From positions 8,218 to 72,217 of the forward strand of contig CAIRFN010000009.1 in assembly GCA_903877885.1 (NCBI GenBank): 64,000 bases of DNA, written 5' to 3'. How positions within the stretch are numbered: position 1 is the stretch's first letter; each line of letters begins with the position of its first letter. Of the stretch, positions 6,823-59,700 are shown piece after piece. The notes beneath the pieces are model-generated. The model was not told where the DNA came from. It was given only the letters and a program-made list of their open reading frames with translations, and searched no databases. This DNA comes from an uncultured Candidatus Berkelbacteria bacterium. Its GTDB lineage: Bacteria; Patescibacteriota; UBA1384; UBA12157. The translations under genes were made by a program, and so were the position numbers.

Positions 6823-6885
6823 AGTTAAAGTATATCAGAATGAAAAAAAATTACAAAAAACCCGCTAATTAAAGCGGGAGTGAGA

Positions 6886-7545: not shown

Positions 7546-7618
7546 CTGAATTCCTCCTTGCAGATTGACTGGATACCAAAAATTATACCAGATTCAAATC
7601 AGTTATTCAAGAGTTCGA

Positions 7619-9852: not shown

Positions 9853-9937
9853 TAACCCTTATACCTTGACATTTTGGTTGAACTATGATATACTTACCGG
9901 TTCTTCCAAAACGGGAGAACTTTTTTAAAGGATAAAA

Positions 9938-10489: not shown

Positions 10490-10564
10490 TGTCGTATTTG
10501 ACAAAAAAAGGGCTTTTGAGCCGCATTTAGCGGTTTCAGGAGCCCTTTTTGTTATCTAAAAACA

Positions 10565-10590
10565 CTAAAAAACCACCCGTAAAGGTGGTT
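10565..10590 (-). terminator. Rho-independent terminator (AACCACC-cgtaaa-GGTGGTT followed by a U-run on the minus strand).
   Basis: 7-bp GC-containing stem followed by T-run on the minus strand. Immediately downstream of the 10603 gene. A near-identical hairpin recurs at 12155..12180. Confidence 0.6.
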
Positions 10591-10602
10591 ATATGGTTAA
10601 GG

Positions 10603-13710: not shown

Positions 13711-13822
13711 CGGTTTTCTCCTCAAGGTTAAATTGTCCAAGTACAGGACTACTGTTATATTATCAAATAATCTTTTATTGTCAATTATGATTAAAAAACC
13801 GCCGTTTGGCGGTTTTTTCGCG

Positions 13823-18420: not shown

Positions 18421-19530
18421 TTAAAGTAGTTTAATCGAATTAATCATATTTTGGTAAATAACTTTGCCAGTATCAAAAGTCTTGGTTGGTGCGTAATAAG
18501 AAATAATCATAACTTTATTAGCCTGAAAAACATAAGTGTTGATCTGTTTAGTGCTGGCAGTAATAGTCTGTTGATACGCGTCTTTGCCATCAATTTTGAG
18601 TAGGGTTAAATTTGGTGTACCGTAGCCGCCAATTGTGTTGTCATCAGCAATCCAATCTTTGAGTAGTTTGCTATTGGTATTTTGAAAAGAAATTTCAACT
18701 TTGTAGCCATCAGCTGTAGTTGTCGTCGAGGGTTTGATGCTGGTAAAGGTCGCAGTATCGGCTTGGGTATTATCCGTATTTTGGCCAAACCAAGTATCGG
18801 GGAATTTGATAATATATTTATATTTATCATTATTATAATTTGTCCAATTACTAGTTAAATCACCTGAAGCTGAAGGACTGGCAGAAACTGATGGCGAAAT
18901 AGATGGAGAAATTTCTATTAGTGGGGCAATCTGGGCTGGGTTATCTTGGCTAATAGTATCGGCAGAAATAGCATTATTTTTTAATAAATCTGGATAATAT
19001 TTATAGCCGAAAAATCCACTACCTAAACCTAAAACTAAAACAATCATAGAAATGACAGTTGTCACTGCAACTGATCGATTATTATTAAACTGATAATGAT
19101 CGACGACTGGTCTTTGGTTTACTTCTGGCTCGCCGTGATCTTCAGTGTGATTTTCTTTTGAAAGCGGAATATCATATTGTTGAATTTCAATCTGGCCATT
19201 ATTGGTATTCGGGGTATTATTGGCAACTCGTTTAACTGTTTTAGGAAAAATATCATCATCGCCATTATTTGAACCAAAAATTTGTTTAAACGACCGATCT
19301 TTATCGGTAATACGAGGATCTTCTACCGCGGGCATCGTTGGCACATGAATTTCACCGGTGGCTATAGGTTTATTCTCTGGCATCTGATTGTCTGTTTCAA
19401 CCGGTATTTCTTGTGGCTTTAGTTGTGTCAATGAATCAATATTCATATCATCAACTTGACCATTGTTGTGATCGGTTGGCGTTTGAGTTTGGCTAGTTGG
19501 ATCTGGATTTATCATTTGATTATCATCCAT
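18421..19530 (-). CDS. Membrane-anchored hypothetical protein with a low-complexity N-terminal region.
   Basis: Long ORF, one TM segment, S/P-rich linker. No recognisable domain. Confidence 0.45.
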   Translation of the reverse strand: MDDNQMINPDPTSQTQTPTDHNNGQVDDMNIDSLTQLKPQEIPVETDNQMPENKPIATGEIHVPTMPAVEDPRITDKDRSFKQIFGSNNGDDDIFPKTVKRVANNTPNTNNGQIEIQQYDIPLSKENHTEDHGEPEVNQRPVVDHYQFNNNRSVAVTTVISMIVLVLGLGSGFFGYKYYPDLLKNNAISADTISQDNPAQIAPLIEISPSISPSVSASPSASGDLTSNWTNYNNDKYKYIIKFPDTWFGQNTDNTQADTATFTSIKPSTTTTADGYKVEISFQNTNSKLLKDWIADDNTIGGYGTPNLTLLKIDGKDAYQQTITASTKQINTYVFQANKVMIISYYAPTKTFDTGKVIYQNMINSIKLL

Positions 19531-30153: not shown

Positions 30154-31161
30154 CTAAATATTTTTATTAAAACCTGGTGGAATAATTTCTGGTTCGCGCT
30201 CGGGGATAAAAAAAGAAATAATGACAAGCAGTAGTCCGATGCCAAAACAAATACCCATCGTTTGAGTAAAGCTACTCGTGAATATCTCTACCAAACCACT
30301 TATAATTGGGTAGACAAATTGGCTGACAAGATTATTCATACCGGGGAAATGTGACAAAATAATATTCAAGCCGTCAAAATAAAACAGGCTAAAACAAATC
30401 GTCAAAAGACTGGTGCCTAAGAGGATCGACAAGCCAATCCAGCGAAAAATTGAACGCCAGTCAGGCGTACCCAAGGCGATTAATGACAATGCTGTTCCCA
30501 GCAAGCCCAAGAGTGAAGCCCAGAAAATAAGATTCAACCAAGAATAGTCTTTTTGTAACTGGCTAAAAGACGTTTTATTTTTATTAAAAAAATCATCAAG
30601 CTTAATCTGATCAGGAATATTCTTACTCAATTCGGTTGGATTAGTATTGGCAACAATAGTAGAGATTGCGCTAGACGTTAGATCATCGTGCTTACAATCA
30701 ATCGGTAAAGAATTATTCTGGACAAACTTTTCTTGTTGTTCAGTCGTGCAAGCTGGTAGTTGATCGTAGCTTTCACTGTAAATTTGCGGTGCAGTCGTTG
30801 ACCATTTGGCAACAAAATCAGCCTTGAATTTGGTTAAATCAATTAAAGCAGCCTGATCATATTTTTTTTGCGTTAGATAATTTTGAGTTGTTTTGATTGA
30901 ACTTTCAGTTTGAGCTTGAAGTTCGGCGGGATCTAGGCTTTGAACTAAAATCTTAATAAAGCCCGTATAACCTAAATCAGATTTGATCGTTTTCTGATCA
31001 ATTACCTGACTAGGTATTTTTTGATAGACCTGGGCTTTAGCTAAACTTTTAATAATAAAATCAGATTCTAACCAATATTTAGTCTGACCAGAGATTACAA
31101 ATAGACCAAAAAAGAGAACGAAAAAGAAAACGGCTATTCCAGCTAATGTTTTATAACGCAT
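30154..31161 (-). CDS. Integral membrane hypothetical protein.
   Basis: N-terminal signal/TM segment. Large periplasmic-like region. About four C-terminal TM helices. Confidence 0.5.
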   Translation of the reverse strand: MRYKTLAGIAVFFFVLFFGLFVISGQTKYWLESDFIIKSLAKAQVYQKIPSQVIDQKTIKSDLGYTGFIKILVQSLDPAELQAQTESSIKTTQNYLTQKKYDQAALIDLTKFKADFVAKWSTTAPQIYSESYDQLPACTTEQQEKFVQNNSLPIDCKHDDLTSSAISTIVANTNPTELSKNIPDQIKLDDFFNKNKTSFSQLQKDYSWLNLIFWASLLGLLGTALSLIALGTPDWRSIFRWIGLSILLGTSLLTICFSLFYFDGLNIILSHFPGMNNLVSQFVYPIISGLVEIFTSSFTQTMGICFGIGLLLVIISFFIPEREPEIIPPGFNKNI

Positions 31162-40209: not shown

Positions 40210-41217
40210 TTATTTTGCCCATAAAACTGACTTTTTAAAACTTTCCAGGTTTTCCACCGCAATGCCAGTACCTTTGGCCACACACAAAAGCGGATCTTCG
40301 GCAGTCTGGCATGGTACACCGGTAATTTTAGTTAACATCTGATCAAGCGAACGAAGTTGAGAACCGCCGCCAGTCATAACGATGCCTTTATCCATCACAT
40401 CACTGGCTAGTTCTGGTGGCGTATTTTGTAAGACGGTTTTCACCGCCGCGATAATTTCTTGCAAAACTTCACGAACGCCCAAAACCACATCAGACGAAGA
40501 AATCATAATACTTTCCGGTAGTCCTGTAATTGTATTACTGCCAGAAACTTCCATGGTTAATTCTTTTTTGAGCGGCAAGGCGGCGCCGACTTTGATTTTG
40601 ATTTTTTCGGCCGTGGCCTCGCCCACAACTAAATTATACTTTTTTCGAATGTAACTGGCGATAGCCGCATCCATTTTATTGCCGCCAACTCGGACCGATG
40701 TTGAAGCCACAATGTCGCCAAGAGCGATCACTGCAACTTCAGTTGTGCCGCCACCAATATCAATAATCATGTTACCGGAACTTGAGGCAATCGGAATGCC
40801 AGCGCCGAGTGCGGCCGCAATTGGTTCTTTAATAACGTAGGCATTTTTAGCGCCGGCGGCGATGGCCGCATCGACGACGGCGCGCCGTTCAGTTGATGTT
40901 ACTCCAGCCGGAATCGCCACCATCAAATCTGGCCGAAACAAGCGAATTCGGCCGCCGAGCTTATTAATATAGTACTTCAACATCGCTTTAGTGATATTAA
41001 AATTAGCAATCACCCCGTCTTTCAACGGATGCGCAGCAATAATACTGTCAGGCGTGCGGCCCAACATCTCTTTGGCCTCTTGACCAATCGCCATCACTTG
41101 GTTATTGGAAGCGTCGAGCGCCACAACTGAAGGTTCGTTAACCACAATCCCCTTGTCAGGTAAATAAACCAAAATATTGGTTGTGCCTAAATCAATCCCA
41201 ATCTTCTTTAGTATCAT
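40210..41217 (-). CDS. mreB: Rod-shape-determining protein MreB.
   Basis: IGIDLGTTNILVY and actin-fold motifs. 4-nt overlap with murA. Confidence 0.9.
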   Translation of the reverse strand: MILKKIGIDLGTTNILVYLPDKGIVVNEPSVVALDASNNQVMAIGQEAKEMLGRTPDSIIAAHPLKDGVIANFNITKAMLKYYINKLGGRIRLFRPDLMVAIPAGVTSTERRAVVDAAIAAGAKNAYVIKEPIAAALGAGIPIASSSGNMIIDIGGGTTEVAVIALGDIVASTSVRVGGNKMDAAIASYIRKKYNLVVGEATAEKIKIKVGAALPLKKELTMEVSGSNTITGLPESIMISSSDVVLGVREVLQEIIAAVKTVLQNTPPELASDVMDKGIVMTGGGSQLRSLDQMLTKITGVPCQTAEDPLLCVAKGTGIAVENLESFKKSVLWAK

Positions 41218-42464
41218 GTAATCCTTTTTATTTTGGCGCCGAGTTTAGCCAAACGTTCTTCAATTTTTTCATAACCACGATCAACAATTTCTGCGTTATC
41301 GATGACAGTTTTTCCTTCAGCCATAAGTCCAGCCAAAATCAAAGTGGCGCCGGCGCGCAAATCTAAACTTTCAATATGCGCGCCATGGAGTTTAGTTGGA
41401 CCTGTAATTTGGGCAGTATGATTATCTAAAATTTCAATTTTTGCACCCATTTTTTCCAACTCTTTTAGATAGCCTAATCTGTTTTCAAATAGTTTTTCGG
41501 AAATTTTACTTTCGCCATTTGCTTGAGTTAAAACCAAACTCGTTTGCGATTGCATATCGGTCGAAAATTCCGGATAAAATCCAGTAGTAATATCTGTTGC
41601 TTTCAAATTATTTGCCGATTTTACTTCCACAAAATCTTGGCCGAGCACAAATTCCACGCCGATTTCTTGCAGTTTATCCAAAAATGGATAAAGATGATCT
41701 GGATTACAATTGGTAATTTTAAAATGACTATTCGTCGCCGCGGCTAGACAGATAAAAGTGCAAGCTTCAAATGGATCAGGCATCACTTTATAGGTTAAAC
41801 CGTGGAGCGCATCCACACCTTCAATATCAATTGTATCGGTGCCGGCACCAGTGATTTTCGCTCCCGCTTCGTTTAGAAAATTAGCTAAATCAGCAATTTG
41901 CGGTTCGCAGGCAACATCAGTGATTTTAGTTTGACCCGTTGCTAGTACTTGAGTCATAATCATATTTTCTGTGGCAGTAACTGATGGGCAAAGCTTAATT
42001 TGGCGACCTTCAATTTTTTCGCGCTTAAAATGGTAAATGGCATCGATTTTTTCAAAATTAGTATCGACTTGCTTAAAACCGTTCAAATGATCATCAATTG
42101 GTCGACTACCAATAGCACAACCACCAGGTTGCGGAATATTAACTTTGCCGAATCTCGCCAAATATGGCCCGGCTAAAACAATCGAACCGCGAAATTTTCG
42201 CACCAAATCGGCATCCGGATCATCATTTGTTAAATTAGTGGTATCAATCGTTAAAGTATGTTGATCACGACTAATTTGAGCGCCGTTTTTAGTTAAAATA
42301 TTAATTAAAGTTTCGATATCAGAAATATCGGGCACATTTTCCAAAATCACTTTATCTTTAATCAAAACTGTGGCGGCAATAAGTTTTAGAGCCGAATTTT
42401 TCGCACCTAAAACCGGAATTTCACCGCTTAATTTTGATAAACCTTCAATTTCGAATTTACTCAC
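41214..42464 (-). CDS. murA: UDP-N-acetylglucosamine 1-carboxyvinyltransferase MurA. GTG start with a GAAAGG RBS chosen by homology; the track ORF extends to 42545.
   Basis: VSKFEIEGLSKLSGEIPVLGAKNSALK N-terminus. Active-site region CAIGSRPID. C-terminal DLRAGATLILAGL. Confidence 0.85.
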   Translation of the reverse strand: MSKFEIEGLSKLSGEIPVLGAKNSALKLIAATVLIKDKVILENVPDISDIETLINILTKNGAQISRDQHTLTIDTTNLTNDDPDADLVRKFRGSIVLAGPYLARFGKVNIPQPGGCAIGSRPIDDHLNGFKQVDTNFEKIDAIYHFKREKIEGRQIKLCPSVTATENMIMTQVLATGQTKITDVACEPQIADLANFLNEAGAKITGAGTDTIDIEGVDALHGLTYKVMPDPFEACTFICLAAATNSHFKITNCNPDHLYPFLDKLQEIGVEFVLGQDFVEVKSANNLKATDITTGFYPEFSTDMQSQTSLVLTQANGESKISEKLFENRLGYLKELEKMGAKIEILDNHTAQITGPTKLHGAHIESLDLRAGATLILAGLMAEGKTVIDNAEIVDRGYEKIEERLAKLGAKIKRIT

Positions 42465-42523
42465 AATTACCTTTCTACTTGCTTTTGTTACGTTTATTGT
42501 ATTATGATTGATAGTAGAAAGCA

Positions 42524-43222
42524 ATGAAGAAAAAACTAAAAACAAGAATATTATTTATCTTACTCTGGATCTTTTTGATCAGCTCATTTTCGCTACTGGC
42601 AATTTTTGTGTTGTACGAGGCCAATGGTTATCGGCTCAATAAAACCACCTTGCGTTTAGAACAAGCTGGACTAATTTCCCTCGATGGACAGCCGAAGCAA
42701 TCATATATTACAATAAATGGAAAAGTTTCAGCCAGCAGTTTACCGGTCAGATTTCAAAAGATTTTCCCTGGCCAATATACTATTTTAGTTAGCCATGATG
42801 GTTACAATTCATGGGCTAAGACTGTTAAAATTGAAGGCGGCCAAGCCTATGAAAACAAAAAAGTTTATTTGTATTTAAGTAATATTACAGCCGCAGAAAC
42901 CACTCGCAATATTACTTTGGAAAATATCACTAATGATGCGCAAAGCCAGAAATCATCGGTTCAGATTCTAAATAATGAAATTTGGTACAAAGAAAAATTA
43001 GTGACCAGATTTGGCTTATCACCAGCCGAAGCCATTTTAACTGATGACCACACTCATATTATGTTTCAACTTGGCCAAGAATTACGAGTGATGGATTTAG
43101 ACGGTACCAACAATATCAAGCTATTGGATTTTTCTAGTAGCGATAGTCATATTTTTGCACTGGACAGTACTAATGTTTTGTTTTCCGATAATGGTAAAAT
43201 TATGGAGGCAAGAATCCGTTAG
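42524..43222 (+). CDS. Membrane-anchored PEGA-domain protein.
   Basis: N-terminal TM segment. LPVRFQKIFPGQYTILVSHDGYNSWAKTVKIEGGQA resembles a PEGA repeat. Confidence 0.5.
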   Translation: MKKKLKTRILFILLWIFLISSFSLLAIFVLYEANGYRLNKTTLRLEQAGLISLDGQPKQSYITINGKVSASSLPVRFQKIFPGQYTILVSHDGYNSWAKTVKIEGGQAYENKKVYLYLSNITAAETTRNITLENITNDAQSQKSSVQILNNEIWYKEKLVTRFGLSPAEAILTDDHTHIMFQLGQELRVMDLDGTNNIKLLDFSSSDSHIFALDSTNVLFSDNGKIMEARIR

Positions 43223-48052: not shown

Positions 48053-49138
48053 TTGCCAGGAGGCGGCATGACCAACAATCTCGATAATTTAAACACAATC
48101 TCTAAGCTCGACGAAGCAGACATTTTAAAAACTATTCGTGATCTGCCCGCTCAAATCGAGCGTTGTTGGAGCGATTGGCAAAGAATTGCTATTCCATCAC
48201 ACTACATCACCTGTAAAAACGTTTTAATTTTAGGTATGGGCGGTTCTGGTGTGGCCGGCGCTTTAGTTAGCTCACTTGCTCGCTACGAATGCAAATTACC
48301 GGTTGAAGTTTGCCGTGATTATAATATCCCAACCTGGGTTGATAAAAATACTTTGGTTATTGCCATTTCTTTTTCTGGTGAAACCGAAGAAACTTTGGAG
48401 GCATTTCGACAAGCCGCTACTAAAACCGAAAAACTAATTACCATTTCCACCGGTGGCAGTCTAGCCTCAATTGGTAGTAATAATAAAGCTTTAAAATATC
48501 AATATGAATATTCGTCTCAACCACGAGCCGCAATTGGTTTTTCTTTAACCGCTGTTTTAGCCATTTTTGCTAAGCTTCACTTGATTGAAATTCGAAGCCA
48601 AGATATGGCTGAAGTAGTGGAACTATTACAAGGTTTACTCAAACAAATTGACAGTGATGTTCAACACTATCGAAACCCGGCCAAATTATTGGCGCAAAAG
48701 ATTTATGGTAAAATTCCAGTGATTTTAGCCAGCGGTAGTCTGGTTGAAGTCGCTCGACGTTGGAAAGGTGATTTCAACGAAAACGCCAAAAACCAGGCCT
48801 ATTTTGAAGAAATTCCCGAGATGAATCACAATGCCCTGGTCGGTTTAGAGCGACCGGAAGATCTGGCGAAAAAAGTATTTTTTATTATTTTAGAATCAAA
48901 CTATAACTTGGAACGCAATAAATTACGCCAGAATATTGTCGGACAAATTTTAACTAAACAAAAAATCGGTTATGAAAATGTGGTCATGGATCCGACCGGT
49001 TCAGTTCTAGCTGAAATGTTTCAAATGATTTTATATGGTAGCTATGTTTCTTATTATTTGGCAATTCTAAACAATGTTGCGCCAGAACCAGTAAAAATGA
49101 TTTCATTTCTCAAAGAAAAATTGGCTGAAAAAAGCTAA
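48053..49138 (+). CDS. pgi: Bifunctional phosphoglucose/phosphomannose isomerase (SIS domain, archaeal-type PGI/PMI family).
   Basis: ILGMGGSGVAGALV SIS P-loop. Overall length and architecture. Confidence 0.7.
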   Translation: MPGGGMTNNLDNLNTISKLDEADILKTIRDLPAQIERCWSDWQRIAIPSHYITCKNVLILGMGGSGVAGALVSSLARYECKLPVEVCRDYNIPTWVDKNTLVIAISFSGETEETLEAFRQAATKTEKLITISTGGSLASIGSNNKALKYQYEYSSQPRAAIGFSLTAVLAIFAKLHLIEIRSQDMAEVVELLQGLLKQIDSDVQHYRNPAKLLAQKIYGKIPVILASGSLVEVARRWKGDFNENAKNQAYFEEIPEMNHNALVGLERPEDLAKKVFFIILESNYNLERNKLRQNIVGQILTKQKIGYENVVMDPTGSVLAEMFQMILYGSYVSYYLAILNNVAPEPVKMISFLKEKLAEKS

Positions 49139-49159: not shown

Positions 49160-50338
49160 TTGATGAGTACAATCAAAGACATCGAGGCACGAAAAATTTT
49201 AGATTCTCGCGGCGTGGAAACAGTTGAAGTCAGAATTTCGACTGATTCTGGGATTATTGTGACTGATTCAGTGCCGTCAGGAACTTCTACTGGCAGTATG
49301 GAAGCAGTCGTTGTCGCGCCGGAAGTAGCCATTAATAATGTTAATGATATTATTAAGCCTAAACTGGTCGGTTTAAACCCGGCTGAACAAGGCAAAATCG
49401 ATCAGATTATGTTGGAACTCGATGGTACACCCGATAAATCCAAACTTGGTGCCAACGCTATTTTAGGTGTTTCGCTGGCAGTTTCTAGAGCGGCCGCCGC
49501 CGCGGCTAAAATGCCGCTTTATCGTTATTTAAATTCTTTATTTAATCTGGTTTCTGGACTCGATATTAAACCGGCAATTCCTACGCCAATGATGGTTATG
49601 ATTGAAGGCGGCAAACACGCTTCGGAAGGCCAAAACTGCATTCAGGAATTTCTCTGTATAACCAGTTTGGAAAACGGCGGCAAAATTTGGAACCGTTTAA
49701 AAAGGAATTTAACTCGCGAAAATTTAGGTGTAACGCTGGGACTTGAAGGCGGTTTTACACCAAAACTTGAATACGATGAAGATGCCCTGCGTTTAATTAT
49801 GGAAGCCATCAATGAGGAAGGTTTGGTTATCAATGAAAATGTCAAACTTGGGTTAGATATTGCCGGTAATCATTGCCAAATGTCACACGATGATGTTTTG
49901 TCAATGGCCGAACGTTACCCGATTTATTCGCTTGAAGATCCGTTTGCAGAAAACGAATGGCAAACTTGGGGTCAATTGAAAAATTCCTTGGACCAATTAC
50001 ATCGGGAATATTTATTGATTGGCGATGATCTTTTTACTACCAATTTGCAACGTTTTGAAAAAGGCGCGGACAATTTTGACGCCAATGGTATTATTATTAA
50101 GGTAAACCAAGTCGGAACTTTGACCGAAACATTAACAGTTATTGCTAAAGCGGTTAAATCCAATTTTACTCATGTTGTTTCACACCGATCAGGTGAAACT
50201 ATGGATACTTATATTTCCGATTTAGCTGTGGCCACAGCCAGTAAGTTTTTAAAATCTGGCGCGCCATTTGCGACCGAACGGGTCATTAAATATAATCGAC
50301 TTCGAGAAATTGCGCAAGAATTAGGTAAAAATACATAA
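49160..50338 (+). CDS. eno: Enolase (short form).
   Basis: N-terminus IEARKILDSRGVETVEV. C-terminal block SHRSGETMDTYISDLAVA...RVIKYNRLREI. Confidence 0.85.
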   Translation: MMSTIKDIEARKILDSRGVETVEVRISTDSGIIVTDSVPSGTSTGSMEAVVVAPEVAINNVNDIIKPKLVGLNPAEQGKIDQIMLELDGTPDKSKLGANAILGVSLAVSRAAAAAAKMPLYRYLNSLFNLVSGLDIKPAIPTPMMVMIEGGKHASEGQNCIQEFLCITSLENGGKIWNRLKRNLTRENLGVTLGLEGGFTPKLEYDEDALRLIMEAINEEGLVINENVKLGLDIAGNHCQMSHDDVLSMAERYPIYSLEDPFAENEWQTWGQLKNSLDQLHREYLLIGDDLFTTNLQRFEKGADNFDANGIIIKVNQVGTLTETLTVIAKAVKSNFTHVVSHRSGETMDTYISDLAVATASKFLKSGAPFATERVIKYNRLREIAQELGKNT

Positions 50339-50344
50339 TTAAAA

Positions 50345-51895
50345 TTGGGAGGGGTTTTGCGACCATTAGTTTTGGTAATTTTAGATGGCTGGGGTTTGAG
50401 TCCGGAAACCGAGGGAAATTCAATTTTGACTGTACCCACGCCAACGATGGATAAATTAATTTCCATGTACCCATTTGCCTCTTTACACGCTTCTGGCGAA
50501 GAAGTTGGTTTAAGTTGGGGTGAAATGGGAAACTCGGAAGTCGGCCATTTGAATTTGGGCACCGGCCGAGTCGTCATGCAAGATTTATCGCGCATCAATA
50601 AAACCGTTGATGACGGCACTTTCTTAAACAATACGATTTTACTCCAAACTTTCGATTACACTGAAACCCAAAATAAAAATTTACATTTGATTGGACTCTT
50701 TTCCGCCGGCGGCGTTCATTCGCACATGGACCATCTTTTTTCTTTGCTAAAAATGGCCAAACTTAAAAATTTCACTCGAGTTTTTATTCATTTAATTAGC
50801 GATGGTCGAGATACGGCGCCAAAAGTTATTTTACAAGATTTAACTAAATTAAATAAATTAATTGCCGAACTAAAAATCGGTCAAATTTCCTCGGTCATGG
50901 GTCGGTTTTATGGCATGGATCGCGACAAACATTGGGAACGAACTGATTTGGCTTACAATTGTTTAATCGGTAAAAATACACCGGAAGCCGCCACTGCCGA
51001 GGAAGCCATCAATCAAGCCTACCAAAAAAACCTGACCGACGAATTTATTGTGCCAACAATGATTACTGGTGGTGGTCGAGTTGCGGCTGGTGATGCCGTT
51101 ATTTTCTACAATTTCCGTGCAGATAGGTCTAAACAATTATCGCAGAAACTGATTGAATCTGACGATCTTTATTTTACTTCTTTCACTAGTTACGGTTATG
51201 AACCAACGCCTAAAGTTAAAGTGGCTTTTTTAACGCCAAAAATTAGTAATCAGTTGAGTATGATTTTGGAAAAAAATAGTTTTAGCCAATTGCATATGGC
51301 GGAAACCGAAAAATACGCTCACGTGACTTACTTTTTCAATGGTGGTTGGGAAAATCCTTTTGATAATGAAAAAAGGATTCTTGTTCCCTCGCCTCGAGTT
51401 GAAACTTACGATTTAAAGCCGGAGATGTCGGCTACTGAACTAACCGATAAGTTTATTCAAGCTTTTAAAACAGATAAACCTGGCTTTACGGTTTTAAATT
51501 ATGCCAATGCGGATATGGTCGGCCATACCGGAAATTTTGCGGCCGCTCAATTAGCGATTAAAACTGTTGATGAAAATTTGGGTCGATTAGCTACGGCGGT
51601 TTTTGACGCTGGCGCCGATTTAATTGTCACCGCTGATCACGGTAATGCTGAACAGATGATTAATCCCCAAACTCATGAGGTTGACAAAGAACATACCACT
51701 AATCCCGTACCCTTGATTTTAGGTTTTCAAGATCATGCACACACTAGTCTTTTACCGAGTTTAGAAACAAAAATTGCTTGGTCAGTTCAACCGCCAATTG
51801 GCGTGTTAGCTGATGTCGCCGCCTCAATTCTTAAACGGATTCAATTAAATCAACCAGCCGAAGTCACCGGTCAAAGTTTAACGGAGGTAATGTGA
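50345..51895 (+). CDS. gpmI: 2,3-bisphosphoglycerate-independent phosphoglycerate mutase, copy 1.
   Basis: ILDGWG, MGNSEVGHLN, SDGRDT, ADMVGHTGN, TADHGNAEQM motifs. Confidence 0.85.
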   Translation: MGGVLRPLVLVILDGWGLSPETEGNSILTVPTPTMDKLISMYPFASLHASGEEVGLSWGEMGNSEVGHLNLGTGRVVMQDLSRINKTVDDGTFLNNTILLQTFDYTETQNKNLHLIGLFSAGGVHSHMDHLFSLLKMAKLKNFTRVFIHLISDGRDTAPKVILQDLTKLNKLIAELKIGQISSVMGRFYGMDRDKHWERTDLAYNCLIGKNTPEAATAEEAINQAYQKNLTDEFIVPTMITGGGRVAAGDAVIFYNFRADRSKQLSQKLIESDDLYFTSFTSYGYEPTPKVKVAFLTPKISNQLSMILEKNSFSQLHMAETEKYAHVTYFFNGGWENPFDNEKRILVPSPRVETYDLKPEMSATELTDKFIQAFKTDKPGFTVLNYANADMVGHTGNFAAAQLAIKTVDENLGRLATAVFDAGADLIVTADHGNAEQMINPQTHEVDKEHTTNPVPLILGFQDHAHTSLLPSLETKIAWSVQPPIGVLADVAASILKRIQLNQPAEVTGQSLTEVM

Positions 51896-53460
51896 ACGAA
51901 ACTCAAGAAAAAGTTATTTTACTGATTATGGATGGTTGGGGCTTGGCGCCAGCCTGGGGTGGCAATGCGATTGAAATGGCTCAAACCCCAAATATCGATC
52001 AGCTCTGGCGTAAGTATCCGCATACCGAACTTAAAGCGGCCGAGGAAGCCGTCGGCTTGCCAATTCATGAAATGGGAAACTCGGAAGTCGGCCATTTAAA
52101 TTTAGGTTCTGGCCAGATTGCTTTCCAAAACTTAACTGGCATAAATTCGATGATTGACGACGGTACATTTAGCAAAAATGAGATTTTAATTAACGCTTGC
52201 AACCATGTCAAAAAAAATAATTCCTGTTTAAATCTTTTAGGTCTTGTCTCTGATGGTGGCATTCATTCGCATATCAATCATCTTTTTGCTTTATTAAAAT
52301 TAGCTAAAGACCAAGGTGTAACCAGTGTTCAAATTCATATGATTACTGACGGCCGCGACACTGATCCGATGAGCGCCTACAATTATGTTGCCAGTTTAAA
52401 AAGTAAAATTGCGGAATTAGGCTTAGGCAAAATTGTGACGATTATGGGTCGATATTTTGCCATGGACCGCGACAAACATTGGGATCGAATTAAATTGGCT
52501 TATGATTGTATGGTTAAAGCCGTGGCGCCAGTGGCCGAAAGCGCGGAAATAGCGATTGCGGAAAACTACCGCCAAAATCATACTGATGAATTTATCACAC
52601 CGACCATTATTCAGACTAAACAAGATCCTTTTAAACCAATTTCCGATAACGACGCGATTATATTTTTCAATTTCCGGGCTGATCGAGTCAGAGAAATTAC
52701 TGACGCTTTGGCGGGAACTAATTTCCGCGGTTTTGAACAGAAAAAATTTCAGAATTTATATTTTGCTACTTTTTCCTTTTTGGAAGAATATGCTCAAAGT
52801 ACTAATATCAAACCTGTTTTTCAAAGTCGCGATATTAAATTTCCTTTAGCGCGAGTTTTGTCTGACGCCGGTCTAACTCAATTTCATATTGCTGAAACGG
52901 AAAAATACGCCCATGTTACTTTCTTTTTTAACGGCGGTACCGAAACACTTTTCCCGGGCGAAGTCCATTTTCTGGTTCAATCACCAAAGGTGCCAACTTT
53001 TGATTTAAAACCGGAAATGTCTGCGCCAGAAATTACCAAAAAAGTGATTGATGATTTTTCTAAATATGATTTTACAGTTTGTAACTTTGCCAACGCTGAT
53101 ATGGTTGGCCACACTGGCAATATTAAAGCCACGATTGCCGCTTGTGAGGCTGTGGATAAGTGCGTTGGTGAAGTAGTTAAGACAGCCTTAAGTAAAAACG
53201 CCACTGTGATGATTACGGCTGACCATGGCAATGCTGAACAAAAACTTAATCCTAATAATGGCGAAGCCTATACGGAACACACCACTAATTTAGTGCCATT
53301 TATTTTATGTTCCAACAATCCTAAATTTGAGCGCCCCTTGCGCAATTCCGGCGGTAAATTCGGACCGGTTTTGTCTGATGTGGCGCCAACGATTTTAGAT
53401 ATTTTTAAGATTCAAAAACCAGAGGAAATGACTGGCACAAGTTTAATTATCAATGCCTAG
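51892..53460 (+). CDS. gpmI: iPGM paralog, copy 2 (4-nt overlap with copy 1).
   Basis: IMDGWG, MGNSEVGHLN, TDGRDT, ADMVGHTGN, TADHGNAEQK motifs all intact. Confidence 0.85.
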   Translation: MNETQEKVILLIMDGWGLAPAWGGNAIEMAQTPNIDQLWRKYPHTELKAAEEAVGLPIHEMGNSEVGHLNLGSGQIAFQNLTGINSMIDDGTFSKNEILINACNHVKKNNSCLNLLGLVSDGGIHSHINHLFALLKLAKDQGVTSVQIHMITDGRDTDPMSAYNYVASLKSKIAELGLGKIVTIMGRYFAMDRDKHWDRIKLAYDCMVKAVAPVAESAEIAIAENYRQNHTDEFITPTIIQTKQDPFKPISDNDAIIFFNFRADRVREITDALAGTNFRGFEQKKFQNLYFATFSFLEEYAQSTNIKPVFQSRDIKFPLARVLSDAGLTQFHIAETEKYAHVTFFFNGGTETLFPGEVHFLVQSPKVPTFDLKPEMSAPEITKKVIDDFSKYDFTVCNFANADMVGHTGNIKATIAACEAVDKCVGEVVKTALSKNATVMITADHGNAEQKLNPNNGEAYTEHTTNLVPFILCSNNPKFERPLRNSGGKFGPVLSDVAPTILDIFKIQKPEEMTGTSLIINA

Positions 53461-53487
53461 CGATGTTCGCCAAAATGAAAGGAAAAA

Positions 53488-55086
53488 ATGCAATTTAGAC
53501 CAATCGTATTAATTATTCTCGACGGCTGGGGTTTGTCACCATCCTGGGGCGGCAATGCTCTAACCATGAATAATCCGAAAAATATCGATAATTTGTGGCG
53601 AAATTACCCACATAAGGTTTTGCAAGCTTTGAGTACTATTGTCACTGACGAAATTGTTGGCGATTCCAGATTGGGCCACACTTTAATCGGCGCCGGCAGA
53701 CCGATAAAAAGTAACTTTGCGATTATTTCCGAATCAATCAAAAAGCGCGATTTTTACCGAAACGATACTTTGCTTGGCGCCATCAACTGGGCTAAGAAAA
53801 ATAATTCAAATTTGCATTTGATGGGACTGGTTTCTGATGGCGGCGTCCACGCCCACATTAATCACCTTTTAGGTTTATTACAGTTGGCTCATGAAAAAAA
53901 CTTTGATCGGGTTTTTATTGATATGATTTGTGACGGCACTGATTCGGCCGCGACTGATGCTTTGCGTTATATTGAAAAAATTGAAAATAAGATCGAAGAA
54001 TTAGGTATTGGTAAATTTAGCTCGATTGGCGGCCGTCATTTTGCCATGGATCGCGACAAACATTGGGAACGAATCAGTAATTATTATAAAACTCTGACTG
54101 GTAAAGGAAACATTATTTATCCTTCGATTCGCAAAGCAGTGACGACTAATTATACCAATGGTCTGAATGATGAATTTATTAAACCAGGCCTAATTGCCGA
54201 TGAGAGTAAAAAGGTTTATCCAATTAAAGAAAACGATGCTGTGATTTTCTTTAATTTTCGTGAGGATCGCGCTCGCGAGTTAACTCAAGTTTTTGTTGAT
54301 TCCAAATTTAGAAATGGTCTTTGGAAACCCAAAAAAATCGATGATTTGTATTTTGCCACTTTTATTAATTATCGAAAAGACTTGCCGGCCAAGGTCGTTT
54401 TTCCCGATATGAATTATTCAAATACGCTTTCGGAAACTATTTCTAAAAATTATTTTAAACAACTGAAGGTAGCGGAATCGCAAAAAGCCGCTCACGTTTC
54501 TTATTTCTTCAATGGCGGAACCGAGGAACCATTTGTCGGTGAAAATCAAAAAATTATTCCATCACTTGATATTACTTCGTATGATCAACGCCCAGAAATG
54601 TCGGCCGAGGCTATTTGCGAAACTGTCATCAAGGCAATTAATAACAAACATCACGAATTAATCGTAGTTAATTTTGCCAATGTGGATATGGTAGCGCACA
54701 CCGGCAATATTGTGGCTACCGGTCAGGCTGTTCAAGTTCTTGATCGGTTAGTTAAAAAAATCGTCGACGAAAACTTAAAAAACAATGGCGCAACCATTAT
54801 TACGGCCGACCATGGTAATGCTGAACAAATGGTTCAGTTAAAACAAAGCTTAGTTGGTGAAAAAGAATCGCTCCACACCTTAAACCCCGTGCCTTTTATT
54901 TTAGTCACACCAAAAAATCAAAAACATTTATTCCACAGCGCGATTGGCCATAGCGCTAATTCGCTCGGGAAAATTATGACTGCCAAGAGCACTTTGGCTG
55001 ATGTCGCCCCAACCATTTTGGAATTAATGGGTATTGGCAAACCAAAAGAAATGACCGGTCATTCATTATTAAATAAACTGGAGTAA
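53488..55086 (+). CDS. iPGM paralog, copy 3, the most diverged (MGNSEVGH becomes VGDSRLGH; DGRD becomes DGTD).
   Basis: ILDGWG, VDMVAHTGN, TADHGNAEQM retained. Substrate-phosphate-binding Arg of the DGRD motif replaced by Thr. Confidence 0.75.
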   Translation: MQFRPIVLIILDGWGLSPSWGGNALTMNNPKNIDNLWRNYPHKVLQALSTIVTDEIVGDSRLGHTLIGAGRPIKSNFAIISESIKKRDFYRNDTLLGAINWAKKNNSNLHLMGLVSDGGVHAHINHLLGLLQLAHEKNFDRVFIDMICDGTDSAATDALRYIEKIENKIEELGIGKFSSIGGRHFAMDRDKHWERISNYYKTLTGKGNIIYPSIRKAVTTNYTNGLNDEFIKPGLIADESKKVYPIKENDAVIFFNFREDRARELTQVFVDSKFRNGLWKPKKIDDLYFATFINYRKDLPAKVVFPDMNYSNTLSETISKNYFKQLKVAESQKAAHVSYFFNGGTEEPFVGENQKIIPSLDITSYDQRPEMSAEAICETVIKAINNKHHELIVVNFANVDMVAHTGNIVATGQAVQVLDRLVKKIVDENLKNNGATIITADHGNAEQMVQLKQSLVGEKESLHTLNPVPFILVTPKNQKHLFHSAIGHSANSLGKIMTAKSTLADVAPTILELMGIGKPKEMTGHSLLNKLE

Positions 55087-55090
55087 GATT

Positions 55091-57070
55091 ATGGAAAAAC
55101 TTTTTGACCCGCAATCAATTGCCATTATTGGCGCTTCACGCGACGTTAATAAATTAGGTTATCAAATTCTGAATGTTTTAATTAAAAATGGCTATAAAGG
55201 CAAAATTTTTCCGGTCAATCCTGAAGCGACGGAAATTTTAAATTTACAATGTTTTAAAAAAATCACTGATATTGATGAGGCAATTGACTTGGCAATTATT
55301 GTTGTGCCAGCGGCAATTGTGCCAACGGTCTTAAATGATTGCGTTTCCAAAAATGTCAGTTTCTCAGTCATTATTTCTTCTGGTTTTTCCGAAGTTGGCG
55401 AAGCCGGAAAATTACTTCAAAATCAAATTAAAGAAATACTAAAAACGACAACCATGCGAATTGTTGGACCGAATTGCTTGGGTGTTTTTAATACGGCTAC
55501 TAATTTTGATGCTACTTTTGCGGCACCAAAAATTACTCAAGGCGGCGTTGGCGCCATTTTCCAATCCGGCGCTTTGGGCGTGGCACTACTTGATTGGGCC
55601 GACCAATATCATTTCGGTTTTTCCAAATTTGTGAGTTTGGGTAACAAAGTCGATATTGAAGAATCAGAACTGATTGATTATTTGGCTGATGATCCGGACA
55701 CTAAAATCATTGCTTTGTATTTGGAAGATGTAGCCAACCCAATTAAATTTTTGGAAGTTTGCCGTCGGGCCACCGAAAAAAAGCCGGTCATTATTTTGAA
55801 AGGTGGTATGACCAATTTAGGTGCCAAGGCTGCTTTTAGCCATACCGCCGCCATGGTCACGTCGAGCTTGACCACTAAGGCCATTTTTCATCAAGCTAAT
55901 TTACTGATTGCTCAAAGCATTGAAGATATGCTTAATATGATTCAAATTTTAACTTCTGAACCGCAGATTATTTCCAAGCAAATGTGTATTATTACCAATG
56001 CCGGCGGCCCTGGAATTCTGGCTACCGATATGGTTGACCGAATGGGCATGAGTTTACCAGCAATTGACGAAAATAGCGCCGAAAGTTTAAAAAAATTATT
56101 GTTACCGGCTGCCTCGATTCATAATCCGCTAGATTTAACTGGTGAGGCTAAAGCTAGCCACTATGAAGCGGCTTTAAAATACGCTATTTCCCGCGATGAA
56201 TTTTCTTCAATTTTGGTTTTATTAACGCCGCAAACCGCGACTGAAATTAGCGAAACAGCCAATATTTTAGCCAGTCTTTCCAAAAATCCTAAACCAATCA
56301 TTGCTTCCTTTTTAGGTGATAAAGCCATTGCCAAAGGAATTGATATTCTGAACGAATATAAAGTCCCCCATTTTACTGATCCCGAAATTGCCGTTTACAC
56401 CATTCATAAGATTGCTAAATATTGGGAAAATGTCTGGAAGAAGAAATATCCAATTGATTTTGAATCTAATGGCGCCAATATTGCGGCGCTTGGCGATCCA
56501 ATTCAATTAGTCCAAAGCTATAATATTCCAGTGCCACCAAGCGGTCTGGCGACCACCTTGGAGGTGGCCTTACAGGTTGTTAAACGAATCGGTTATCCGG
56601 TCGCCGTTAAAAATGTGGGTAAATTCGGCGAGCATAAATTTAAGGCTGGCAAAGTTAAATTAAATATTGAAAGTGAACAAGCGCTGGAGAACGCGATCAA
56701 AGCTGTTCAATTCCCGGTCTTAATTCAAAAAATGGTCGACTTACCATTCGAAGTGATTGTCGGCGCCAAACGTGATCCCAAATTAGGCATTGTTTTAACC
56801 TTTGGTTGGGGCGGTGTTTATGTTGAAGATTTGGGTGATTTGTCGGCGCGGATTTTGCCATTGACAGAATCAGACTTAGACGAGATGATACAAGAGACGA
56901 AAATCGGCAAAGTTTTAATTCGCGAACACGTTGATCTTTCTGGAATTAAAAATATTTTAGTGGCCGTTGGTCAGATTATGACTGATTACAGTCAAATCAC
57001 TGAAATCGATTTAAATCCAATTAAGGTTTCAGCCGATCGCGCCATTTGCGTTGATGCGCGTTACAAATAA
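55091..57070 (+). CDS. acd: ADP-forming acetyl-CoA synthetase (NDP-forming acyl-CoA synthetase, fused alpha/beta).
   Basis: CoA-binding N-domain (FDPQSIAIIGASRDVNKLGY...FPVNP). Succinyl-CoA-synthetase-like domain. C-terminal ATP-grasp domain. Confidence 0.8.
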   Translation: MEKLFDPQSIAIIGASRDVNKLGYQILNVLIKNGYKGKIFPVNPEATEILNLQCFKKITDIDEAIDLAIIVVPAAIVPTVLNDCVSKNVSFSVIISSGFSEVGEAGKLLQNQIKEILKTTTMRIVGPNCLGVFNTATNFDATFAAPKITQGGVGAIFQSGALGVALLDWADQYHFGFSKFVSLGNKVDIEESELIDYLADDPDTKIIALYLEDVANPIKFLEVCRRATEKKPVIILKGGMTNLGAKAAFSHTAAMVTSSLTTKAIFHQANLLIAQSIEDMLNMIQILTSEPQIISKQMCIITNAGGPGILATDMVDRMGMSLPAIDENSAESLKKLLLPAASIHNPLDLTGEAKASHYEAALKYAISRDEFSSILVLLTPQTATEISETANILASLSKNPKPIIASFLGDKAIAKGIDILNEYKVPHFTDPEIAVYTIHKIAKYWENVWKKKYPIDFESNGANIAALGDPIQLVQSYNIPVPPSGLATTLEVALQVVKRIGYPVAVKNVGKFGEHKFKAGKVKLNIESEQALENAIKAVQFPVLIQKMVDLPFEVIVGAKRDPKLGIVLTFGWGGVYVEDLGDLSARILPLTESDLDEMIQETKIGKVLIREHVDLSGIKNILVAVGQIMTDYSQITEIDLNPIKVSADRAICVDARYK

Positions 57071-57096: not shown

Positions 57097-58161
57097 ATGA
57101 AAAAAGAATTTTTAACTGGCAATGAAGCGGTGGTTCGCGGCGCGTTGGCCGCTGGCGCAAAGATGCTGACTGGCTATCCAATCACTCCAACCACCGAAAT
57201 AATGCATTATTGGTCAAGAGAACAAGCCGACCCGATGAACTTAGATCGCGGAATTAAATTTCTGCAAACCGAAGATGAAATGGCGGCTGGTTTTGCCATG
57301 ATCGGCGGCGTTCTAGCTGGCGTCAAAGCATATACTGCCACGGCCGGCCCGGGAAATGTCTTAATGCAAGACGCTTTTTCCATGGCTGAAAACTTACGAC
57401 TGCCAACTGTCGCCTTTATCAACCAGCGGGGTGGGCCTTCAACTGGCACAGTCATTTATAGTCAACAAGAAGTTAATTTAACTTGTTTTGGCGGCAATGG
57501 CGAAGGTTTGCGCATTGTTTATTCGGCCAGCTCTGTTCAGGAAATGTTTGATTTTGCCATTCGCGCCTTTAATACTGCCTGGAAATATCGCTTTCCGACT
57601 TTTGTTTTGTCTGACGGCTACACGGCTAAAACCGAAATCGAAATTGAAACATATGAACCAAAAGAAAAAAATATTGATTTGATTGATATCAAACCTTATC
57701 TTTGTGGTAATACTTCTCAAAATTCGGTTAATATTCGAAATTGCTATAATTTAGAAACTGAATTAAACGAAATTGTCACCGCCAACAAACATGCCTTTGA
57801 CGCGATTAAAGCCGAAATTGTCGATTTTGAAGATTATAAAACTGAAGATGCCGATATTATAATTATGGCTCATGGCATTGTCGGCGCCGCCGCTAAAATG
57901 GCTGTCAATCTTTTGCGCGATGATAATATCAAAGCCGGCCTATTTCGACCAATTACCTTAAATCCGTTTCCAGCTGAAGCGGCAAAACAGGCCGCGGAAA
58001 ACGTAAAAGCCATTCTGATTGCCGAATCTTCTTTGGGCCAGTTTGAAAGTATGGTAAAAAATAATTTGTATGGGCAGACTGTGCCGATTGAGGCGCTACT
58101 ATCACCAGCCAAAGGTATTAGCGTTGAAGAAATCGTAGCTAAAGTTAAGGAGATGATATGA
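57097..58161 (+). CDS. porA: 2-oxoacid:ferredoxin oxidoreductase (pyruvate/2-ketoisovalerate type) alpha subunit.
   Basis: GNEAVVRGALAAGAKMLTGYPITPTTEI N-terminal signature. Confidence 0.8.
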   Translation: MKKEFLTGNEAVVRGALAAGAKMLTGYPITPTTEIMHYWSREQADPMNLDRGIKFLQTEDEMAAGFAMIGGVLAGVKAYTATAGPGNVLMQDAFSMAENLRLPTVAFINQRGGPSTGTVIYSQQEVNLTCFGGNGEGLRIVYSASSVQEMFDFAIRAFNTAWKYRFPTFVLSDGYTAKTEIEIETYEPKEKNIDLIDIKPYLCGNTSQNSVNIRNCYNLETELNEIVTANKHAFDAIKAEIVDFEDYKTEDADIIIMAHGIVGAAAKMAVNLLRDDNIKAGLFRPITLNPFPAEAAKQAAENVKAILIAESSLGQFESMVKNNLYGQTVPIEALLSPAKGISVEEIVAKVKEMI

Positions 58162-58889
58162 CCGAACCAGTTTTTCCTAAATCCTGGAAAAAAGAAAGCA
58201 AACCGCATAAATTCTGCCCTGGCTGCGGCCAAGCTTTAGCCTTAAAAATTCTAGGCTATGCCATTGACGAATTAGATATCGCTAAAAAATTGGTCTATGG
58301 TTGCGACATTGGTTGCTCGCTTTTAACCTGGGATATGTTTAATGTCGATACGATTCAAACCCATCACGGCCGAGTTATTCCAACAATGGTTGGTTTTAAA
58401 TTAGCCAAGCCAGAAGCGATTACGATTGCCTTTTTGGGTGACGGTGGTGGTTATGCTATCGGTGCGCAACATTTGGTTAATGCCGCCATGCGTAATGATA
58501 AAATTACTGTAATCTTGATCAATAATGCCAATTATGCCATGACCGGCGGCCAACTAGCACCAACGACTTTAGTTGGTCAGAAAACCGATACCACGCCTAA
58601 TGGCCGCGATGAAGCAGTTTTTGGTAATCCGATTCACGGCCCAGAAATGATTGCCGCCATTGCCGCACCCGGCGCTTACATCGCCCGAACCACATCGAAT
58701 AATTTTGAAGATTGCAAAGATAAAATCAAAAAAGCCTTGCAAAATCAGATTGATGGCAAGGGCTTTAGTTTTGTGGAAATTTTGAGCATGTGTCCGGTTA
58801 ACTGGAAAACAAATACGGTTGAATCACTCGAGTATGTGGATAAAAACATGGCCAATATTTTTCCACTGGGAGAAATAAAAAATGATTAA
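58158..58889 (+). CDS. porB: 2-oxoacid:ferredoxin oxidoreductase beta subunit (TPP-binding).
   Basis: FCPGCGQ...GCS Cys motif. TPP motif FLGDGGGYAIGAQHLVNA...NNANYAMTGGQ. Confidence 0.85.
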   Translation: MTEPVFPKSWKKESKPHKFCPGCGQALALKILGYAIDELDIAKKLVYGCDIGCSLLTWDMFNVDTIQTHHGRVIPTMVGFKLAKPEAITIAFLGDGGGYAIGAQHLVNAAMRNDKITVILINNANYAMTGGQLAPTTLVGQKTDTTPNGRDEAVFGNPIHGPEMIAAIAAPGAYIARTTSNNFEDCKDKIKKALQNQIDGKGFSFVEILSMCPVNWKTNTVESLEYVDKNMANIFPLGEIKND

Positions 58890-59700
58890 AATATTATTAG
58901 CTGGCGAAGGCGGCCAAGGCGTTCAAACCGTAGCCAAGATTATCACTGAAGCGGCTCAAGCTAGAAATGAAAAAACCAGTTTTATTCCGTCGTTTGGTGT
59001 CGAGCAACGCGGCGGAGTAAGTCTTGCTTACATTCAAATCGCCGAGGAAAATATTCCTTATCCTCGCTTTGAAACAGCCGATATTATTGTCGCTTTTTGT
59101 AACCGCGCTATTAAAGCAATCGAAAATTATATTACCGATCAGACGATTTTTATTTATGATAGTTCAGCTATCAGTGACGACTTTCTTGAGCCGATAAAAT
59201 CCAAGGTAAAAATCCATATTGGCATTCCAGCTCAAAAAATCGCTAAAGAAAAATATTCAACCAAAATTTTGAATATGATTTTGCTGGGAGCGCTCGCCCA
59301 TCAATTAAAATTTAATCTTGAAGAAGTTAAATCAGCCACTCACAAAACCTTGGGCGATAAGTTTAAAACCGAAGAAGTCGAAAAAATGAACCTGGATGCA
59401 CTAGCCGAAGGCCTGACGCTATCCGAGAATTTTGATTCTAAATCCGAATTTGTCGGTAGTGGAAAACCGGAAATTAAACTGGAATTTTCTGATGACAAGA
59501 AAACTTGGACTAGATTTCCCGAGCATTGCAAAGGCTGCGGCCTCTGTGTTTTTCGTTGTCCAGTCAAAGCCATTCAATTTAAAAAAGAAGTTGGTTTTTT
59601 GGGCAATCCCCTGCCAGAAGTTGATATTGAAAAATGCATCGCCTGCGGTATGTGTCAGCGAACATGTCCAGATGGAGCGATAAGACTGGAAAAGAAATAA
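58882..59700 (+). CDS. porGD: Fused gamma-delta subunit of 2-oxoacid:ferredoxin oxidoreductase (PorG domain plus 2x[4Fe-4S] ferredoxin).
   Basis: N-terminal LLAGEGGQGVQT (gamma). C-terminal CKGCGLCVFRCP and CIACGMCQRTCP (two ferredoxin-type clusters). Confidence 0.8.
   Translation: MIKILLAGEGGQGVQTVAKIITEAAQARNEKTSFIPSFGVEQRGGVSLAYIQIAEENIPYPRFETADIIVAFCNRAIKAIENYITDQTIFIYDSSAISDDFLEPIKSKVKIHIGIPAQKIAKEKYSTKILNMILLGALAHQLKFNLEEVKSATHKTLGDKFKTEEVEKMNLDALAEGLTLSENFDSKSEFVGSGKPEIKLEFSDDKKTWTRFPEHCKGCGLCVFRCPVKAIQFKKEVGFLGNPLPEVDIEKCIACGMCQRTCPDGAIRLEKK

Follow-up and report, generated by a model that had tools for sequence, protein, structure and literature searches.

Cofactor-independent phosphoglycerate mutases (iPGMs), which interconvert 3-phosphoglycerate (3PG) and 2-phosphoglycerate (2PG) upstream of enolase, have been studied as drug targets in parasites and Gram-positive pathogens. 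The bacterial type, GpmI or GpmM (TIGR01307), is represented by the B. stearothermophilus (Bst) enzyme (structures 1EJJ, 1EQJ and 1O98). We describe here three consecutive, co-directional open reading frames (ORFs) of this type on the + strand at 50345-55086 of a 64,000-nt stretch of DNA (the window). Copies 1 and 2 resemble bacterial GpmI in every tested respect and look like canonical mutases (3PG to 2PG and back, feeding enolase). Copy 3 has the two domains, the metal ligands, Ser62, the residues H123, D154, R185, R191, R261, R264 and K336 and the closed fold of GpmI, but its clade lacks Arg153, carries N61D/E, E63R, V64L, H147D and G406A/S, has a G53-L54 deletion and is altered in the K336 region. 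By residue pattern and phylogeny the copy-3 family is a conserved, undescribed iPGM subfamily that is Berkelbacteria-wide. We put the probability that copy 3 is a specialised, non-redundant enzyme with a changed substrate or reaction outcome at about 0.5.

The archaeal-type mutase ApgM (TIGR00306) and its relatives, the 'proposed homoserine kinase' TIGR02535 and the PhpG phosphonoformyl transferase NF038358, provide a precedent for iPGM-like metalloenzymes that act on small acids in a different phosphoryl or phosphono transfer, and so for a paralog with a new substrate and an unchanged metal and nucleophile core. Matches to these ApgM-type families are weak and partial, lying in the C-terminal metal-binding region at 20-48 bits against cut-offs of 320-545, and copy 3 is of the bacterial GpmI type. 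Phosphopentomutase DeoB (TIGR01696; 3M8W) has the alkaline-phosphatase-superfamily core and the metal site in common with copy 3, but differs in its own cap domain and its Thr nucleophile (compare the T85 variant structures).

The window comes from a groundwater bacterium with a tiny genome. In database searches, the best relatives of copy 3 carry the label Candidatus Berkelbacteria, a lineage of the Candidate Phyla Radiation (CPR). CPR genomes are among the smallest known. Reconstructions of central carbon metabolism in CPR usually rely on the presence or absence of hidden Markov model (HMM) matches. In the survey of Foster et al. 2010 (PMC2964296), bacterial iPGM paralogs were rare, with four instances of two bacterial-type iPGM genes per genome, and phosphoglycerate mutase paralogs were found mostly in larger genomes. 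Jaffe et al. 2020 (PMC7304191) scored pgm in CPR as a single presence/absence trait, reported pyruvate kinase in only about one in three CPR genomes, and noted that undetected substitute enzymes cannot be excluded. The terms 'pyruvate kinase' and 'phosphoglycerate mutase' do not occur in the supplements of the latter study, where no per-genome trait table was found. Our literature search returned no paper on multi-copy iPGM in CPR or on the copy-3 subfamily, and on the metabolism and pyruvate kinase status of Berkelbacteria it returned CPR-wide statements only.

Family membership and active sites of the three copies

The initial annotation recognised three full-length, diverged iPGM genes of 516, 522 and 532 amino acids (aa), which our analysis confirms. 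Copy 1 (50345..51895, +) encodes 516 aa from its first start or 512 aa from a TTG at 50357 and has a canonical active site; copy 2 (51892..53460, +; 522 aa) is the most canonical of the three; and copy 3 (53488..55086, +; 532 aa) belongs to a subfamily marked by the motifs G[DE]SRLGH and DG[TVI]D. Pairwise identity is 46-47% between copies 1 and 2, 40-41% between copies 1 and 3, and 43% between copies 2 and 3. All three pass the TIGR01307 iPGM equivalog cut-off of 330.65 bits (593, 624.7 and 524.7 bits for copies 1, 2 and 3), and none reaches the stricter NF003897 cut-off of 862 (472, 522 and 419). In each of them the Pfam domain Metalloenzyme (PF01676) is interrupted by iPGM_N (PF06415), which scores 233 bits in copy 3. 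Copy 3 does not qualify as a phosphopentomutase of the DeoB type (20-40 bits against cut-offs of 254-341; template modelling (TM) score 0.37-0.48) or by the archaeal-type ApgM models (25-28 bits against cut-offs of 320-489). It has no match to TIGR02535 or PhpG, two models that hit copy 2 only, at 20-25 bits against cut-offs of 446-545.

Residues are numbered below as in Bst iPGM, reconstructed from a HMMER alignment to 1EJJ. The metal ligands D12, S62 (the nucleophile), D403, H407, D444, H445 and H462 are present in all three copies. The substrate set H123, R153-D154, R185, R191, R261-R264 and K336, which follows the UniProt/HAMAP annotation of Q9X519 and whose invariance was checked in this analysis, is complete in copies 1 and 2, and copy 3 lacks Arg153 only. 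The motifs DGWG, ADMVGHTGN and ADHGNAEQM, initially given as common to all three, are present with two corrections: copy 3 reads VDMVAHTGN and copy 2 ADHGNAEQK. The other copy-3 readings, VGDSRLGH and DGTD, align as proposed to MGNSEVGH and DGRD of 1EJJ.

Within copy 3, the nucleophile motif D59-S60-R61-L62 (53662..53673, +) corresponds to Bst N61-S62-E63-V64, with the Ser kept and its neighbours altered. Asp145 (53920..53922, +) stands in place of His147 and co-varies with E63R. Thr151-Asp152 (53938..53943, +) corresponds to Arg153-Asp154, the Arg being replaced (Thr151 codon 53938-53940) and the Asp kept, and Ala403-His404 (54694..54699, +) to Gly406-His407, where the metal-ligand His is kept and the adjoining Gly replaced. 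The predicted loss of a substrate-site Arg is thus correct, and Thr151 occupies a position that is otherwise invariant. A specific phosphate-binding role of Arg153 is only putative; the UniProt/HAMAP label for 153-154 is simply 'substrate binding'. The literature search on structural role found no open paper naming Arg153 of iPGM and recovered only the orientation of the Glu63 equivalent.

Neighbour-joining analysis of 171 iPGM sequences (510 alignment columns and 100 bootstraps) splits a copy-3 family (n=69) from all others with 100% bootstrap support, and the same split is found in a focused second tree with 78 sequences and 200 bootstraps. Nested in this family is a 41-sequence core with the same 100% support, to which the copy 3 of the window belongs. 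Copy 3 therefore lies outside the canonical iPGMs, and the initial annotation, for which firm clustering within them would have counted against a shift, stands on this point. Arg153 is present in 96/96 canonical sequences and in 0/41 of the core (I19, T12, V10); among the outer members of the family the position is R in 12 and L, Q, I, Y or another residue in 16. The machinery around it is intact: S62, H66, H123, D154, R185, R261, R264, K336, D403, H407, D444, H445 and H462 are found in 41/41 core sequences, R191 in 40/41, and D12 in 38/41, the other three having an alignment gap. The replacements are themselves consistent across the core, where N61 becomes D31/E10, E63 becomes R37/H3/K1, V64 becomes L (41/41), H147 becomes D (38/41) and G406 becomes A31/S10, and the two conserved residues G53-L54 are deleted. 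At 98 canonically invariant positions, each at least 95% conserved in 78 canonical iPGMs, copies 1 and 2 each depart at 4 (none of them catalytic in copy 1) and copy 3 departs at 15; canonical sequences depart at 0.8 on average and at no more than 6. Near Lys336, copy 3 carries T334S, E335Q, Y337A and T341S.

These replacements are not independent of one another. A basic residue at position 63 occurs together with Arg153 in 0/45 cases and together with Asp147 in 41/45. Thirty-one sequences without Arg153 keep Glu63, and it follows that Arg153 was lost first. The Glu63 equivalent of C. elegans iPGM, E87, points into the active-site cleft beside the nucleophile and the metals (PMC8113725), so that E63R would bring a guanidinium group into the cleft. 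It may be that R63 stands in for the missing R153, or that a charge-swapped contact between the domains joins positions 63 and 147.

Relative to Bst iPGM, insertions specific to CPR also occur in copy 3 towards the C-terminal end of its phosphatase domain (residues 448-465 and 483-490, about 54829-54957); they are modelled with a predicted local distance difference test score (pLDDT) below 50. Copy 1 has one CPR-specific insertion near the same terminus.

Fold, constraint and age of the array

An AlphaFold2 model of copy 3, built with 21 clade members, has a mean pLDDT of 86 and a predicted TM score of 0.86, with low confidence in residues 50-59, the loop before the nucleophile. The structure check suggested at the outset gave a clear result: the model fits best on closed, substrate-bound iPGM (1O98, 1O99, 1EJJ and 5VPU; TM 0.87-0.92) and poorly on phosphopentomutase (0.37-0.48). 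Constraint was gauged from ortholog identity ratios instead of the ratio of non-synonymous to synonymous substitution rates, as the nearest ortholog with DNA is 58-59% identical and synonymous sites are saturated. Across the same genome pairs, copy-3 orthologs are 58, 54 and 51% identical, against 63/63, 54/59 and 56/58% for copies 1/2. The copy-3 values are only slightly lower, and purifying selection is therefore comparable to that on copies 1 and 2.

The array is conserved in relatives. The identical copy-3 gene is found on 19 contigs from several samples, the contigs being up to 159 kb long, and the closed 915-kb Berkelbacteria genome CP011213.1 has the same order pgi-eno-iPGM-iPGM-iPGM-acd-por with a copy-3 ortholog of 59% identity. 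Contigs L085, L086 and L087 also carry the three-copy array (copy-3 identity 47-53%), and orthologs of copies 1, 2 and 3 are each present in CP011213.1 and in these three contigs. The more distant L005, L088, L089 and L090 have two-copy versions with one canonical and one copy-3-type gene. The copy-3-type gene is the last iPGM gene, directly after a canonical copy, in 11/11 contexts sampled, an upstream gene that is cut off in one of them being identified from the focused tree, and in none of these genomes is a copy-3-type gene the sole iPGM. In L087, copy 1 (6810-8411) looks degenerate, with H123N, R191Q, R261K and a long branch, and copies 2 and 3 are intact; the dispensable paralog may differ between lineages.

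Arrays of genes of one family are notoriously prone to collapse or expand during assembly, and a recent duplication, an assembly or binning artefact and a horizontally acquired cassette were each considered for the triplication. They are refuted by synteny and by the ortholog clades: the paralogs are 40-47% identical, each with its own orthologs in relatives, the array recurs in a closed genome and in several independent assemblies, and GC content is uniform. That the copies are not recent, near-identical duplicates, initially judged by eye, is hence upheld. With the identical gene on 19 contigs and synteny in a closed genome, the array is real, and on the evidence of gene order and trees it is old, vertically inherited and lineage-wide. 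Such a triplication had been called unexpected in a reduced genome; the rarity of bacterial iPGM paralogs and their bias to large genomes (PMC2964296) bear this out, but the array is no recent oddity of one genome.

In the main tree copies 1 and 2 are placed with the canonical sequences, and each is matched by separate orthologs in the genomes with three copies (the copy-1 clade has a bootstrap of about 100). In the focused tree the sole canonical gene of the two-copy genomes lies nearer copy 2. The most economical history would begin with an early duplication that separated the copy-3 family from a canonical gene, continue with a later origin of copy 1 and end with stepwise remodelling of copy 3.

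Breadth was examined in a library of 1.84 billion representatives clustered at 50% identity (E<=1e-30). The copy-3 core is essentially one cluster (P0075, 559 bits), and the next match, among 1,928 iPGM-like clusters, scores 458 bits. Of the 149 nearest representatives, 125 retain Arg153; those with another residue there are mostly copy-3-like, and a few of these are even more derived. Three of the latter (P0123, P0125 and P0146) carry the motif xDSR[YH]A[HF], with Gly65 replaced and I, E or V at position 153, and in P0146 the conserved His66 is Phe. All sources name copy-3-family proteins plain iPGM. A peptide-seeded scan of genome contigs with the copy-3-clade alignment was dominated by canonical iPGMs, since these also contain the seeds LDGWG.SP and ITADHGN.E, and did not return close relatives. 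Its output was used as the canonical reference set and as a source of other CPR tandem pairs.

Tandem iPGM pairs proved to be common in other CPR groups too. In CPR of the Parcubacteria/Magasanikiibacteriota type, small genomes likewise carry a divergent paralog, with the motif GNSEAGH, beside a canonical copy (L016 8399-11560, L031 8403-11575, L051 8431-11575, L054 7515-10668, L063 8420-11572 and L076 7800-11500). This paralog differs from copy 3 in forming an independent clade (about 100% bootstrap), in lying upstream of the canonical gene, in keeping Arg153 and in carrying V64A. About 10 canonically invariant positions are altered in it. L016, L054 and L063 are labelled 'uncultured Gammaproteobacteria', yet their iPGM pairs cluster with Parcubacteria-type CPR, and the taxonomy labels of these metagenome-assembled genomes may be wrong.

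The glycolytic operon and the rest of the window

The initial annotation placed the three genes in a pgi-eno-gpmIx3-acd-porABGD cluster, and Pfam and NCBIfam matches identify the flanking genes as claimed. The first gene (pgi/pmi, 48053..49138, +) encodes a bifunctional phosphoglucose/phosphomannose isomerase (NF006426, 322.6 bits against a cut-off of 295; Pfam bact-PGI_C and SIS); its true start is probably the ATG near 48068, giving the 356 aa of public gene calls. Enolase, which converts 2PG to phosphoenolpyruvate (PEP), follows at 49160..50338 (+; TIGR01060, 365 bits against a cut-off of 300; Enolase_N and Enolase_C). Downstream of copy 3 lies acd (55091..57070, +), an ADP-forming acetyl-CoA synthetase-like gene (acetyl-CoA to acetate and ATP) with CoA_binding, Succ_CoA_lig and ATP-grasp_5 domains and a TIGR02717 score of 507 bits, under the 567 cut-off. 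The last genes, for a pyruvate/2-oxoacid:ferredoxin oxidoreductase (57097..59700, +), encode alpha (57097-58161), beta (58158-58889) and fused gamma/delta (58882-59700) subunits, with Pfam matches POR_N/PFOR_II, TPP_enzyme_C, POR and Fer4 in precomputed results for the identical contig.

The gaps from eno through the three iPGM genes to acd are 6, -4, 27 and 4 bases, the start of copy 2 overlapping the stop of copy 1. Terminator-like sites inside the cluster do not exceed those in shuffled sequence, and a promoter/terminator scan gave no internal signals. Given the tight spacing and the lack of a terminator-like excess, the genes from pgi to por are most likely co-transcribed as a single predicted operon. 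For copy 1 the TTG at 50357 is the likely true start, since the ribosome-binding site GGGAGGGG precedes it and public gene calls give 512 aa. The first in-frame TTG starts of copy 1 (50345-50357) and pgi (48053-48068) overlap GGAGG-type ribosome-binding sites. The operon encodes the steps from 3PG to 2PG, 2PG to PEP, pyruvate to acetyl-CoA and acetyl-CoA to acetate; the step from PEP to pyruvate has no gene in it.

The acetate-forming module behind the iPGM array is exchanged between relatives. It is acd here and pta with ack in L087 (11648-13368) and L091 (2921-4638), and in L089 an AMP-forming acyl-CoA synthetase on the opposite strand (9607-11337) takes the place of acd. An EPSP_synthase-family gene at 41214-42545 (-) of the window, probably a PEP-using MurA, is kept just upstream of the glycolytic operon in L003 and L086-L089, together with a sortase gene and usually PEGA-domain genes. 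GC content is even across the region. The remainder of the window consists of housekeeping genes (ftsZ, ftsA, mreB, nusA, clpB, hisS, relA/spoT, a MurA-family gene and glycosyltransferases), and five - strand ORFs of 301-575 aa (10603-12075, 12190-13917, 17059-17964, 18421-19530 and 30154-31161) have no Pfam match at E<=1e-5.

Possible functions of copy 3

We are highly confident of the anatomy, age, conservation, fold and residue pattern of copy 3 as described. A functional shift is favoured because an invariant pocket Arg is gone and coherent neighbouring changes have been fixed and conserved. Copy 3 is expected to be catalytically active and still to bind a small phospho-carboxylic acid, as it retains the whole metal and nucleophile core along with its remaining cationic contacts to the substrate. 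Any new substrate is most likely of this class too, to judge from the iPGM transferase domain, the retention of H123, D154, R185, R191, R261, R264 and K336, and the fit to closed iPGM. The two domains of copy 3 would still shut on an anion resembling phosphoglycerate, and a phospho-enzyme would form. The pocket of copy 3 would have been rebuilt in steps, with Arg153 lost first, and repeatedly, to I, T, V, L, Q or Y, and N61D/E, E63R, V64L, H147D and G406A/S fixed afterwards. The outcome may be an altered choice of phospho-acid or an altered fate of the phospho-enzyme, by transfer to a different position or acceptor or by hydrolysis. Copy 3 would then act at the 3PG/2PG/PEP node, though not as a third identical mutase.

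Several observations weigh against such a shift. About 40% of the outer members of the copy-3 family still have R153, and the trees are distance-based (neighbour-joining, not maximum likelihood), with no resolution of deep canonical nodes. Copy 3 keeps 14/15 of the known catalytic or substrate residues and sits in a glycolytic operon, where a plain iPGM isozyme would look alike. R63, never found with R153, could simply supply the missing guanidinium from a new position, which would bring back normal mutase activity. Two canonical-looking copies have been kept equally long, so that long retention alone is no proof of a new function. The strongest competitor, plausible although we lean away from it, is accordingly a third 3PG/2PG isozyme that differs in kinetics, in pH or metal preference or in dosage, Arg153 being dispensable or replaced by R63. 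Besides the score above the TIGR01307 cut-off, the closed iPGM fold and the operon setting, it gains from the restriction of R63 to sequences without R153, and from N61D and G406A, which adjoin metal ligands and make a change of metal preference plausible; the two canonical copies indicate that the lineage tolerates or needs iPGM multiplicity. Such an isozyme is harder to reconcile with the presence of R153 in every canonical sequence and its replacement, among the nearest 50% representatives, almost only in copy-3-like ones. Compensation cannot have been immediate, as the 31 sequences with Glu63 lack both arginines, and the 15 changed invariant positions extend to the K336 neighbourhood. Moreover, a copy-3-type gene serves as the only iPGM in none of the sampled genomes. 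On balance, we regard a functional shift as somewhat more probable than simple redundancy.

It is improbable that copy 3 is a duplicate in decay, or a pseudoenzyme without catalytic activity that has a regulatory or scaffolding role. The loss of an invariant substrate-binding Arg, the lowest family score of the three (525 bits) and the low-confidence loop at residues 50-59 could be read in this way, but the ORF is full length, the seven metal ligands including Ser62 are kept in 38-41/41 core sequences, copy 3 diverges at a rate like that of copies 1 and 2, and its new residues are themselves conserved across the clade; genuine decay is seen instead in copy 1 of L087. More doubtful still is the suggestion of the initial annotation that copy 3 had become another phosphosugar mutase, or a generic alkaline-phosphatase-superfamily phosphatase, for instance a phosphopentomutase-like one. 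The core metalloenzyme domain is common to iPGM and phosphopentomutase, the CPR nucleotide-salvage pathways discussed by Jaffe et al. 2020 (PMC7304191) involve pentose phosphates, and NCBIfam phosphopentomutase models do match copy 3 weakly (E about 1e-10, 40 bits against a cut-off of 254). Equally weak matches are, however, obtained for the canonical copies 1 and 2. Copy 3 has a complete iPGM_N domain and keeps all the arginines by which the glycerate carboxylate and the phosphate are held, and its model resembles iPGM (TM about 0.9) and not phosphopentomutase, so this part of the annotation is set aside.

A specific form of the functional shift follows from the operon, which has no PEP-to-pyruvate step. 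The copy-3 family might be a new activity on the iPGM scaffold that fills this gap in the lower glycolysis of Berkelbacteria, accepting PEP and passing its phosphoryl group to water or to an acceptor such as glycerate; 2-phosphoglycolate or phospholactate might be substrates instead. PEP is 2PG minus the C3 hydroxyl, and its acceptance is conceivable since a polar Arg153 has been swapped for an aliphatic residue in the pocket of a phosphoserine-forming enzyme. We hold this proposal to be a long shot.

All three Berkelbacteria genes are counted as 'pgm' in HMM-based reconstructions of CPR metabolism. The long retention of two to three iPGM paralogs, one of them with a rebuilt pocket and intact catalytic machinery, suggests a difference between enzymes at the 3PG/2PG/PEP node of these fermenters that has gone unrecognised. 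The copy-3 family also offers a natural experiment on the trio Arg153, Glu63 and His147, which is otherwise invariant in iPGM. If copy 3 does have a new activity, annotation pipelines based on TIGR01307 would be mislabelling a whole subfamily.

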